Shown here piece by piece: positions 33,528-37,060 of a DNA stretch of 64,000 bases. Within the stretch, counting starts at the first letter, position 1; every line of letters begins with the position of its first letter. Below the pieces are notes generated by a model. It had not been told where the DNA came from. It saw only the letters and a list, made by a program, of their open reading frames with translations, and did no database searches. The DNA comes from an uncultured Pseudomonadota bacterium. GTDB taxonomy: Bacteria > Pseudomonadota > Alphaproteobacteria > RF32 > CAG-239. The position numbers and the translations under genes are program-made. The DNA is taken from assembly GCA_949295005.1 (NCBI GenBank), contig CASFJL010000005.1:2589-66588 (forward strand). The letters run 5' to 3'.

Positions 33528-33541
33528 AAATAACAAAAAAA

Positions 33542-33570
33542 AAGAAGTTCCTCTTTACAAGGAACTTCTT
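33542..33570. terminator. bidirectional terminator between convergent genes
   Basis: AAGAAGTTCCT / AGGAACTTCTT 11-bp stem, 7-nt loop, with an A-run on the left and a T-run on the right. Confidence 0.7.
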
Positions 33571-33576
33571 TTTTTG

Positions 33577-34308
33577 TTATTGACGTGCTTCAAAAATTTC
33601 AAATGTTGATTTTAAATATGCTAATAATTCTTTATCTTCAAAAAACTTCTCACACTCGCTATCTGGTGTATTATCACCTTCAACCTGACGATAGCGTTGA
33701 AGATAATATTCTTTAACCCCTTTGGCTTTGAGTTCTTCGGCAATTGTATAAATATCTTTGACACTTAATACTCTCGGGTCACAAGTGGTGCGACACTCAA
33801 AATGCTTGCCGCTTTTTATTAACATATCCAAGCTTTTCATGGCTTTTTCAAAGTGGTTAATTCCGCCAACTGCTTTGGTATAATGTTCGGCATTCAACGG
33901 GGCCTTAATGTCAAAACCAACCCAATCAAGCAAAGGCAATATTTTTTCAAAATGCTCAGGACGATACCCTCCTGTGTGCATTCCAACCTCATACCCCATA
34001 TCTTTAACTTGTTTAATATAATCTATTAAACAATCTTGAACCAAAGGCTCTCCACCACTAAAAACAACCGCATCTAATATGCCTTTTCTACCCTTCAAAA
34101 ACTCTGCAAATTTCTCCCAAATAAAATTGGTTTCCGCACCGATTTTTTGTAAAGCTTTGTTGTGGCAAAAAGGGCAACGCCACGGACAGCCCTGCATAAA
34201 GACAACAGCGGCCATCTTATTTGGAAAATCGACGGTGCTGAATGTTTCAACACCGCCGATTTTAATCTCTTCTTGCATTATTTTTTCAATAATACTATTC
34301 AGCTGCAA
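33577..34308 (-). CDS. nrdG: anaerobic ribonucleoside-triphosphate reductase activating protein (radical SAM)
   Basis: GCPWRCPFCHN radical-SAM cluster motif and VVFSGGEPL. Located directly downstream of nrdD. Confidence 0.9.
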   Translation of the reverse strand: MQLNSIIEKIMQEEIKIGGVETFSTVDFPNKMAAVVFMQGCPWRCPFCHNKALQKIGAETNFIWEKFAEFLKGRKGILDAVVFSGGEPLVQDCLIDYIKQVKDMGYEVGMHTGGYRPEHFEKILPLLDWVGFDIKAPLNAEHYTKAVGGINHFEKAMKSLDMLIKSGKHFECRTTCDPRVLSVKDIYTIAEELKAKGVKEYYLQRYRQVEGDNTPDSECEKFFEDKELLAYLKSTFEIFEARQ

Positions 34309-34507
34309 TGGCTGTATAATCTTCTCTTGCTTCCATACCTGCGATTGCTTTGCTTTCAGAGAAGCATACTCTTGTATAAAACTCTGACTTTTTGCCTTTG
34401 TTGAACTCAGATACCGGACGCAAATAACCCATTACTCTGGTCCAAACTTCGCAAGGTTGTCTTTCTTCATCTGATAATCTAACATCATTAATATTAATTG
34501 TAGTCAT
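34295..34507 (-). CDS. stand-alone glycyl-radical module of class III RNR (NrdD C-terminal loop encoded as a separate 70-aa ORF)
   Basis: EVWTRVMGYLRPVSEFNKGKKSEFYTRV matches the conserved NrdD C-terminal glycyl-radical motif (R-x-x-G-Y-x-R-P-V-x-x-x-N-x-G-K). It has its own GGAG 10 nt upstream of the ATG and overlaps nrdG by 14 nt. Confidence 0.7.
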   Translation of the reverse strand: MTTININDVRLSDEERQPCEVWTRVMGYLRPVSEFNKGKKSEFYTRVCFSESKAIAGMEAREDYTAIAAE

Positions 34508-34542
34508 TTTTAATATACTCCAAGTTCTAAGAATTATTAACT

Positions 34543-36597
34543 TTATGCAACTTCTTTTCTAGAGGCTGCGGCTCTTTTTTCTGCCATTTTCTCTTCATCG
34601 CAGATTGGGCAGTATTTGTGTTCTCCGGAAATATATCCATGTTTTGGGCACACGGAGAAAGTCGGAGTGATGGTAATGTATGGTAAACGATAGTTGGTCA
34701 AAACTTTTCTTACCAAGTCACGGCAAACTTTGGCTGAAGACAGCTTTTGTCCCATGTAAAGGTGAAGAACCGTTCCACCTGTGTATTTTGTTTGCAAGCG
34801 AGCTTGCAAATCCAAAGCTTCAAACGGGTCATCCGTAAAGCCAACCGGCAATTGTGAAGAGTTGGTATAATACGGATTTTCTTGCGTGCCGGCTTGAATG
34901 ATATTCGGGAAGCGTTTTTTATCTTCACGAGCAAAACGATAAGTTGCGCTTTCTGCCGGTGTGGCTTCCAAGTTATACATATGACCGGTTTCTTCTTGAA
35001 TCTTAACCATTTGAGCACGGATATAATCCAAAAACTTCTCGGCAAAATCTTGACCAAACGGCGTAGAGATATTTTCTTTGCCATCGGTGTAGTTCAAAAT
35101 CATTTCATTGATACCGTTAACACCAATGGTAGAGAAGTGATTGCGCAATGTTCCCAAGTAGCGTTTGGTATAAGGATACAAACCATTGTCAATCAAGCGT
35201 TGAATTACCTTGCGTTTGATTTCTAAAGAAGTGCGCGCAATGTTCATCAACTCATCAACACGAGCAAATAAACCTGTTTCATTGCCTTTATAAACATAAC
35301 CTAAACGTGCGCAGTTAAAAGTAACAACACCGATTGAACCTGTTTGCTCCGCTGAACCGAACAAGCCGTTGCCTCTTGCCAACAATTCACGCAAATCTAA
35401 TTGCAAACGGCAGCACATTGAACGAATTTGACCTGGTTTTAAAGAAGAATTGATAAAGTTTTGGAAATAAGGCAAACCATATTTTGCAGTCATTTCAAAC
35501 AACAATTCAGTATTCTCATCTTCCCACGGGAAATCCGGCGTCATATTATATGTCGGAATCGGGAATGTGAACGGACGACCTTTAATATCACCTCTCATCA
35601 TAACCTTGATGTAGGCTTTATTAATCATATGCATTTCTTCTTTCAAGTCACCATATGTAAAGTCTTGCTCAACACCTGCAATAATTGGGTGTTTATCGCG
35701 CAAATCTTCAGGGCATACCCAGTCAAAAGTAAAGTTGGTAAACGGTGTTTGTGAACCCCAACGAGAAGGAACATTCAAGTTATAAATCAGCTCTTGAAAA
35801 GCTTGTTCAACTTGATCATAATTTAATTTATCTGCTCTGACATAAGGTGCCAAATAAGTATCAACTGATGAAAAAGCTTGTGCTCCGGCCCATTCATTTT
35901 GCAAAGTGCCCATGAAGTTAACCATTTGTCCGATTGCGGCAGACAAGTGTTTTGCCGGACCGGCTTCAGCCTTACCAGGGACACCGTTAAAACCTTCATG
36001 AAGTAAGTTTTTCAAAGACCAACCGGCACAATATGCTGCCAACATATCCAAATCATGAATATGAATATCTCCATTGCGGTGTGCTTCTCCAACATTGGAA
36101 GGATATACATGGCTCAACCAATAGTTTGCTGTAACTTTACCGGAAACATTCAAAATCAAACCACCGTTTGAGTAACCTTGGTTGGCGTTGGCATTAACAC
36201 GCCAGTCCAATCTTTCCAAATATTCATTAATAGAGCTTTCAACATCTACCATTACCTTTTTATCACTACGCATACGATTGCGTTGGTCTCTATACAAGAT
36301 GTAGGCCTTGGCTGTGGCAAAATAGTTTGCAGAAATTAAAACTTGTTCTACCACATCTTGAATTTGTTCAATTGAAGGCAAGCTCTCTGCAAATTTGTGT
36401 TTTAGAACTTTCATAACTTGGGCTGTCAGCAACCAACTTTCTTCTTCACCAAATTCATTGGTATTTTGACCGGCTTTCAAAATTGCATTATAAATTTTTG
36501 TATTATCAAAAGGTGCCAAAGTACCATCTCTCTTGGTGACATTTTCAAATGGCGTGTTTTCATTTTCTTGTGATAAATTTAACTTGGTTTCTGACAT
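34543..36597 (-). CDS. nrdD: anaerobic ribonucleoside-triphosphate reductase, large polypeptide (ATP-cone + barrel + Zn ribbon, lacking the glycyl-radical loop)
   Basis: N-terminal ATP-cone (VTKRDGTLAPFDNTKI...KAYILYRDQR), a core with RSMCCRL and GSIGVVTFN, and C-terminal CPKHG...CPICD. The ORF stops 15 codons after the Zn ribbon. Confidence 0.9.
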   Translation of the reverse strand: MSETKLNLSQENENTPFENVTKRDGTLAPFDNTKIYNAILKAGQNTNEFGEEESWLLTAQVMKVLKHKFAESLPSIEQIQDVVEQVLISANYFATAKAYILYRDQRNRMRSDKKVMVDVESSINEYLERLDWRVNANANQGYSNGGLILNVSGKVTANYWLSHVYPSNVGEAHRNGDIHIHDLDMLAAYCAGWSLKNLLHEGFNGVPGKAEAGPAKHLSAAIGQMVNFMGTLQNEWAGAQAFSSVDTYLAPYVRADKLNYDQVEQAFQELIYNLNVPSRWGSQTPFTNFTFDWVCPEDLRDKHPIIAGVEQDFTYGDLKEEMHMINKAYIKVMMRGDIKGRPFTFPIPTYNMTPDFPWEDENTELLFEMTAKYGLPYFQNFINSSLKPGQIRSMCCRLQLDLRELLARGNGLFGSAEQTGSIGVVTFNCARLGYVYKGNETGLFARVDELMNIARTSLEIKRKVIQRLIDNGLYPYTKRYLGTLRNHFSTIGVNGINEMILNYTDGKENISTPFGQDFAEKFLDYIRAQMVKIQEETGHMYNLEATPAESATYRFAREDKKRFPNIIQAGTQENPYYTNSSQLPVGFTDDPFEALDLQARLQTKYTGGTVLHLYMGQKLSSAKVCRDLVRKVLTNYRLPYITITPTFSVCPKHGYISGEHKYCPICDEEKMAEKRAAASRKEVA

Positions 36598-36647
36598 CTC
36601 TATTTTTGACCCCTCTTCAATATTCAGAAATTACCCATAAAGAAAAA

Positions 36648-36693
36648 CTACTACATTTTGTATTAAGAAAAAGTAAATAACAAAATATTGTGT
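36648..36693. promoter_or_regulatory. candidate tandem NrdR boxes, proximal pair
   Basis: CTACTACATTTTGTAT (36648..36663) matches the remembered consensus acaCwAtATaTwGtgt at 10/16. AACAAAATATTGTGT (about 36678..36693) matches at 13/16 on the reverse strand. Centres are about 30 bp apart, 50-95 nt upstream of the nrdD ATG. Confidence 0.35.
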
Positions 36694-36956
36694 TTGACTT
36701 TTTTTGTTCGATTTAAAGCTTGTGAAAACTTCTGGCTTAATATTGCGTTATGATAACTTAGATAACAAGTATTTTAATCTTAACAAAACGCTAAAATTAT
36801 CTATCTTATTATATTTATTAGATAAAAAATTTTTTCTCTTGTAGATAAAATTCTTAATAACTTTTTTCTTATTTTTTTTATGCTTAAATTTGTGTCAAAA
36901 TCTACAAAAAACGCAACTAAAAAATGTATTTTTATCGCGACTCTGATTCTTTCTTT

Positions 36957-37004
36957 ATACAAATTATTGTAGGATTCGAATCTCTTTTATACAATATATA
37001 GTAA
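36957..37004. promoter_or_regulatory. candidate tandem NrdR boxes, distal pair
   Basis: ATACAAATTATTGTAG (36957..36972, 10/16) and ATACAATATATAGTAA (36989..37004, 13/16), with centres 32 bp apart, about 360-400 nt upstream of nrdD. Confidence 0.25.
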
Positions 37005-37010
37005 CATTAC

Positions 37011-37044
37011 AAAAAAAAATAAGAGAGCCTTGCGACTCTCTTAT
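37011..37044 (-). terminator. rho-independent terminator of the TolC-like lipoprotein gene
   Basis: ATAAGAGAG / CTCTCTTAT stem (37019..37027 / 37036..37044) with an 8-nt loop. On the minus strand it is followed by a T-run (A-run 37011..37019). Confidence 0.65.
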
Positions 37045-37060
37045 TTCTTGCTTCTTATTT

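Follow-up and report, generated by a model that had tools for sequence, protein, structure and literature searches.

Class III (anaerobic) ribonucleotide reductases (RNRs) have been characterised as enzymes with the radical glycine in the catalytic chain. All the biochemistry and structures of this class rest on that assumption, including the solved enzymes of T. maritima (4COI/4U3E), P. copri (8P23), S. thermophilus (9D3X) and phage T4 (1H78). One subclass of NrdD, the thioredoxin-type MCCR enzymes represented by the family model NF006126 (PRK08270), has been studied in Neisseria bacilliformis. Split RNRs are known from the other classes, namely class II NrdJa/NrdJb of Pseudomonas aeruginosa and Thermus phage phiYS40, and class I NrdA-a/NrdA-b of Aeromonas phage Aeh1; phage phiAS4 has a fragmented nrdD of unknown meaning. 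According to a review of glycyl-radical enzymes from June 2026, spare parts are known only for the formate lyases, other cases being undetermined. Here we analyse 64,000 nucleotides of contig CASFJL010000005.1 from an uncultured gut alphaproteobacterium (hereafter the window), in which the radical loop of a class III RNR is encoded by a gene of its own, 70 codons long. We consider it very likely that the locus encodes an obligate two-chain class III RNR. A full-text literature search found no description of an NrdD with the radical loop as a separate polypeptide, in agreement with the preliminary description of this DNA, where no such case was thought to have been reported. The layout is apparently unpublished, and it is common to hundreds of species and many phages.

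The large gene, nrdD-large (36597..34543, minus strand), encodes a protein of 684 aa, the catalytic body of a class III RNR. This chain contains an ATP-cone (PF03477), matches positions 2-531 of 562 of the NRDD family PF13597 with 590 bits (cut-off 26.2), and aligns with positions 3-659 of 684 of NF006126 with 1123 bits (cut-off 548). The finger loop carries the double cysteine in the form SMCCR, and a zinc site of the C-x2-H...C-x2-C type (CPKH...CPIC) is present near the C-terminus; both motifs, and the catalytic residues of the large chain, are invariant in 38 aligned sequences. The glycyl-radical motif RVxGY is not there on the large chain, whose PF13597 match ends at position 531. Instead, the chain closes with a hydrophilic tail of 17 residues after CPICD, which the preliminary description had counted as 15 codons. 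The TAA that ends the frame is followed by more stops in the same frame (TAA AGT TAA TAA ... TAA AAA TGA) within an intercistronic spacer of 35 nt (34542..34508, minus strand).

The radical-loop gene follows at 34507..34295 on the same strand in another frame, and its ATG at 34507 is preceded, 10 nt upstream, by a GGAG at 34521..34518. Its 70-aa product matches PF13597 solely at positions 531-562, the last 32 of the family (E 4.5e-9, above the cut-off), and NF006126 at positions 649-682. It contains the motif EVWTRVMGYLRPVSEFNKGKKSEFYTRV, in which the radical glycine is Gly27 (34429..34427). The chain consists of an N-terminal strand with an invariant ERQPCEVW, the hairpin RVMG27Y-RPVSEFNKGKKSE and a tail that ends in AIAAE. 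The two chains jointly cover NF006126, and no part of it is lost or duplicated. Two adjacent open reading frames (ORFs) that jointly span the profile of one RNR subunit are kept among relatives, as in a split RNR. The anatomy given in the preliminary description therefore stands in its essentials: the ORFs and the profile matches confirm a 684-aa chain with ATP-cone, barrel and Zn ribbon that has no radical motif, and the sequence likewise confirms the spacer with its several in-frame stops and the 70-aa ORF 35 nt downstream, in another frame, with its own GGAG and ATG and the NrdD radical loop.

The third gene, nrdG (33577..34308, minus strand), encodes a radical SAM activase, which matches the NrdG2 model TIGR02495 with 194.8 bits (cut-off 131.15). 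If it starts at TTG 34308 it overlaps the small gene by 14 nt, as had been proposed before, and if it starts at ATG 34278 there is no overlap, the start lying 16 nt past the stop of the small gene. The ATG appears to be at least as likely as the TTG, because homologues align from about residue 10. The three genes form a minus-strand operon flanked by two strong intrinsic terminators, one upstream at 37049..37014 and one that closes the operon at 33575..33537 with a stem of 17 bp and a T run (both minus strand). Nothing comparable to these terminators was found in the interval separating nrdD-large from the small gene. When the operon was scanned with Rfam, the only matches were chance miRNA-like ones on the terminator, and a promoter scan gave a result no better than that from shuffled sequences. 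The region upstream of nrdD-large (36598-37060) is long.

On this basis, we propose the following arrangement. The allosteric ATP-cone, the Zn ribbon and the ten-stranded barrel, whose MCCR finger loop bears the thiyl-radical cysteines, would all belong to the large chain. The 70-aa chain is probably translated separately, from its own Shine-Dalgarno (SD) site and ATG on the shared mRNA, and would provide a beta-hairpin whose tip, Gly27, is converted to a glycyl radical by the adjacent NrdG2-type activase. The activated hairpin would then dock non-covalently into the barrel, at the site taken by the C-terminal loop in one-chain NrdD; both activation by NrdG and docking are predicted from homology. 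The locus resembles one-chain NrdD/NrdG in its ATP-cone, barrel, finger-loop cysteines, Zn site, RVxGY hairpin, adjacent radical SAM activase and predicted fold. It differs from one-chain NrdD in that the radical glycine resides on a second polypeptide of 70 aa that has a translation start to itself, in that a linker and an invariant Cys (in ERQPCEVW) precede the hairpin, and in that a tail of about 20 residues ending in AAE follows it. As in NrdJa/NrdJb and NrdA-a/NrdA-b, consecutive ORFs with a short spacer encode contiguous parts of one catalytic subunit, both of which are predicted to be needed. However, those enzymes are cut within their catalytic or C-terminal domains, whereas the cut described here separates off precisely the element that bears the radical, and this small piece has been multiplied and moved to phages.

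The preliminary description proposed that the same split be looked for in related genomes. When 41 related genomes were searched in six frames, 25 proved to have the small frame as an open frame 54-99 aa long. Nearly the whole genus is among these 25, together with 12 more genera of the same family and one additional family each in the order and in the class. Species-representative genomes contain at least 576 stretches with the small frame, and the best 80 of these all belong to metagenome-assembled genomes (MAGs) of uncultured gut or rumen Alphaproteobacteria from many independent studies. Such an open frame, present in these relatives and stretches, is far beyond what chance would produce. 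Within a sample of 301 Alphaproteobacteria, 36 have NrdD, of which approximately 21 (from more than a dozen GTDB families) have the split form and 13 the one-chain form. The arrangement also extends to divergent high-GC operons from metagenomes, which have the identical gene order with an 8-nt overlap of the small gene and nrdG; one of them is without the ATP-cone.

Protein databases give a similar picture. A word-indexed search, which retrieves proteins of similar length only, yielded 781 clusters at 90% identity with proteins of 38-122 aa; every one of the 120 clusters listed has Pfam NRDD, and the name, in the few cases where there is one, is 'anaerobic ribonucleoside-triphosphate reductase'. 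With HMMER, 1210 of 1.84 billion cluster representatives (50% identity) matched at E values up to 1e-10, and the best 150 of them are all 54-152 aa long. The core (D/E)ERQxCE(V/I)WTRVMGYxRPVSxFNxGKKxE is kept throughout the family.

We compared the junctions in 91 independent nrdD-linked loci, counting SD sites over all 108 small genes (these 91 and 17 unlinked ones). Relative to nrdD, the small gene lies in frame 0, +1 or +2 in 31, 30 and 30 loci, the spacer is 25-68 nt long, nrdG follows downstream in 90 loci, and an SD-like site precedes 107 of the small genes. These data bear on whether the two frames could be joined by recoding, i.e. by programmed frameshifting, stop read-through or ribosomal bypassing, to yield a one-chain NrdD after all. 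About a third of the loci do have both parts in the same frame, at times with a single TAA between them, and the range of the bypass in T4 gene 60 takes in a gap of 25-68 nt. However, the three relative frames are equally common, the spacers contain several stops including TGA, nearly all small ORFs have a well-spaced SD site and an ATG at the point where conservation starts, and the unlinked and phage-borne small ORFs would be translated with no nrdD upstream. The frames, the spacer stops and the SD sites thus fit independent initiation and disfavour recoding, which we regard as highly improbable.

The small gene evolves under purifying selection, with a median dN/dS of 0.17 over 888 pairs. 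Moreover, the class I/II alpha subunit (PF02867) was not found in three genomes of the same genus, in eight from further genera of the family (mostly 99-100% complete) or in a further genome, G027 (G001, G006, G010, G013-G020 and G027 in our numbering), in which the split NrdD is the only RNR. Because these genomes hold no PF02867 and only the split NrdD, the two-piece enzyme must supply all deoxyribonucleotides there. The split NrdD is the sole RNR of at least 11 near-complete relatives. The genome of the window itself additionally encodes a class I NrdA (760 aa) and NrdB (344 aa) on a different contig (G000 contig C4, L149 1733-5070), both of which the three genomes of its genus and the eight further genera lack.

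The latter observation is relevant to a pseudogene, since class I NrdAB could make the loss of NrdD tolerable in this organism, and the preliminary description had weighed a recently disrupted gene or an assembly error against a natural two-piece RNR. By that account a one-chain nrdD would have been interrupted, either by a recent lesion (nonsense or frameshift) or through an error in sequencing. The same split, however, occurs in more than 100 genomes that were assembled independently from gut samples of humans, ruminants, chickens and mice, the SD site and the start codon are conserved, the dN/dS value of the small gene is 0.17, and many relatives have no other RNR. We therefore reject the lesion or artefact as extremely improbable, and the natural two-piece RNR is supported by the same family-wide conservation, the use of all three frames, the SD/ATG signals, the purifying selection and the relatives that have it as sole RNR. 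An apparent nrdD in three pieces in one relative (G025, L013) was rejected, its gaps being runs of masked N. In a relative with a 1.0-Mb genome (G265), the large and small genes lie on separate contigs (L133 on G265:C1 and L134 on G265:C17), and unrelated genes follow the large one.

To obtain a structural view, we modelled with AlphaFold2 (AF2) a 760-residue read-through product of an in-frame locus from the same genus, with the single TAA read as Gln, using an alignment of 38 paired or one-chain sequences. The model has a mean pLDDT of 80.2 and a pTM of 0.75. Its small-chain part forms strands 710-715 and 718-721 around glycine 717, followed by two helices (pLDDT 72-89), and the confidence is low in the artificial linker and the last ten residues. 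The top Foldseek matches of the model are the class III RNR structures 9D3X, 8P23, 4COJ and 1H78. The model agrees with a normal radical hairpin in the position expected for it; as evidence for docking of the hairpin it is weak.

Several points weigh against an obligate two-chain enzyme. The evidence for it here is that of sequence and predicted structure, and AlphaFold may simply recall the NrdD fold. With class I NrdAB encoded in the genome of the window, the split enzyme is not essential in this organism, and the absence of other RNRs in the relatives is based on draft MAGs.

The point at which the chain was divided can be located by comparison with one-chain relatives. Canonical ones, 50-56% identical, have the junction CPxCGxxTxVWTRVMGY. 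Two closer one-chain forms (L109 and L111, 67-72% identical) have a linker of about 15-25 residues followed by (D/N)RQxCEVWTRVMGY, and in the split forms the stop, the SD site and the ATG all lie within this same linker. Alignment of the split point with NrdD families, another step suggested in the preliminary description, accordingly puts the break inside the linker between the Zn ribbon and the radical hairpin. When the large chains are placed in a tree, all split forms group with the two one-chain forms of the linker type, in a single clade that has 100% support and excludes the canonical forms. This tree calls for at least two changes of state, and the linker-type one-chain NrdDs may be either ancestral or re-fused, both of which fit. 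A single origin of the split would be compatible with these data. Since one-chain relatives show the linker, its insertion between Zn ribbon and hairpin appears to have come first in this NrdD clade, and the split to have arisen within it.

Besides the operon copy, several genomes of the split type have further small genes that are not linked to nrdD, and many of these extra copies are located in prophages. There is one extra unlinked gene each in G014, G015, G018, G124 and G254, two in G309, three each in G043 and G198, and four in G027; the genome of the window has the linked copy only. In the sample of 301 genomes, a free-standing small gene was found in none of the 13 with one-chain NrdD. 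Some unlinked copies are chromosomal paralogues at a conserved site adjoining atpDC. Others adjoin a tyrosine integrase or, as judged by eye, genes resembling those for phage lysozyme, M15 peptidase or Mu-type proteins. No loop-less glycyl-radical enzymes were found among the neighbours of the unlinked chromosomal copies. In core identity, an unlinked copy ranks the linked copy of its own genome 1st to 4th of 39 in 11 of 12 cases.

Viral sequences carry the small gene as well. A scan of IMG/VR gave 149 stretches, and among the best 80 loci 77 have a free-standing small ORF, with no nrdD or nrdG within 6 kb in 70 of those 77. The neighbours sampled include phage integrases directly adjacent to the small ORF, as well as tail proteins, DGR-type reverse transcriptases and a helicase. 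Seven of the viral loci, on contigs 17-108 kb long, have the whole split nrdD. For a small protein of the prophage type, one weak match only was obtained in the INPHARED phage collection.

Like GrcA/YfiD of E. coli and Y06I of phage T4, the small chain is a small free-standing glycyl-radical hairpin protein with copies in phages, and by analogy its activation is presumably carried out by the activase of the parent enzyme. Unlike GrcA/YfiD, the small chain is kin to NrdD, matching only Pfam NRDD (PF13597) with no match to Gly_radical (PF01228). A further difference is that its partner large chain has no loop of its own, which would make the small chain a constitutive subunit and not the replacement of a damaged part.

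The analogy nevertheless raises the possibility of an exchangeable radical cartridge, which would extend the two-chain enzyme rather than replace it. Oxygen would cleave only the 70-aa chain at its glycine, and the intact 78-kDa body would be reloaded with a fresh chain activated by NrdG, whether encoded in the operon, by a chromosomal paralogue or in a prophage. The restriction of extra unlinked copies to split-type genomes, as against none among those with one-chain NrdD, would suit such a scheme, as would the predominance of free-standing ORFs next to integrases, tail genes and a helicase in the viral loci. Y06I of phage T4 offers a precedent for an autonomous radical domain borne by a phage, and the similarity of unlinked copies to the linked copy of their own genome is in keeping with the scheme. 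However, a body without a loop of its own makes the small chain a regular subunit, with no spare involved, and host-matched sequences can come from recent capture alone. In addition, the genome of the window has a single, linked copy, and the support consists of patterns of copy number and phage carriage together with the GrcA/Y06I analogy. We therefore consider exchange of the small chain rather unlikely. If it did occur, paralogue and prophage copies would feed one body, temperate phages could tune the anaerobic deoxyribonucleotide supply or the oxygen tolerance of their host, and this would be the first glycyl-radical spare-part system besides that of pyruvate formate-lyase.

The obligate two-chain enzyme, as the very probable reading of the locus, has practical consequences irrespective of such exchange. 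A radical-bearing peptide of 7.9 kDa could be labelled, mutated, activated and titrated apart from the body, which would provide a handle on the access of NrdG and the entry of the hairpin. The multiplied and phage-borne small genes would let the spare-part question be tested directly outside pyruvate formate-lyase. Moreover, current annotation gives both pieces the name 'anaerobic ribonucleoside-triphosphate reductase', so pseudogene filters and RNR surveys may miscount them.

Some further features were noted around the additional copies. The second chromosomal small-chain gene is followed by a gene for a conserved lysine-rich protein of 630-780 aa with no NCBIfam match (L020 1829-3868; L092 4359-6395; L080 4347-6239; L066 3366-5708), and the pair adjoins atpD-atpC in L020, L080 and L092. 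In two prophages (L150 2665-3813 and L161 2826-4061), the small gene lies between the integrase and a tail module with a DGR-type reverse transcriptase (phrog_1423). Four IMG/VR contigs of 64-108 kb (L199, L209, L211 and L214) carry a full split nrdD whose large gene is broken by 370-950 nt, possibly an intron, an intein or a homing endonuclease insert.

The small chain itself has two conserved features outside the hairpin. It ends in [IVLM]AAE in 105 of the 108 loci L001-L108 (34295-34309 in the window), an AAE ending that only 2 of 1800 long ORFs in the genome of the window have; the tail is modelled with low confidence and frequently contains a CxC pair. The AAE tail could anchor the chain to the body or to NrdG, or could be a turnover signal. 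Cys19 (34451-34453), within ERQPCEVW and just before the radical hairpin, is invariant and does not occur in the canonical one-chain relatives. In some lineages (loci examined for this cysteine: L131, L139, L141, L142, L197, L198 and L219) it has moved by two residues (RQPVECW), a shift that would leave it on the same face of a strand.

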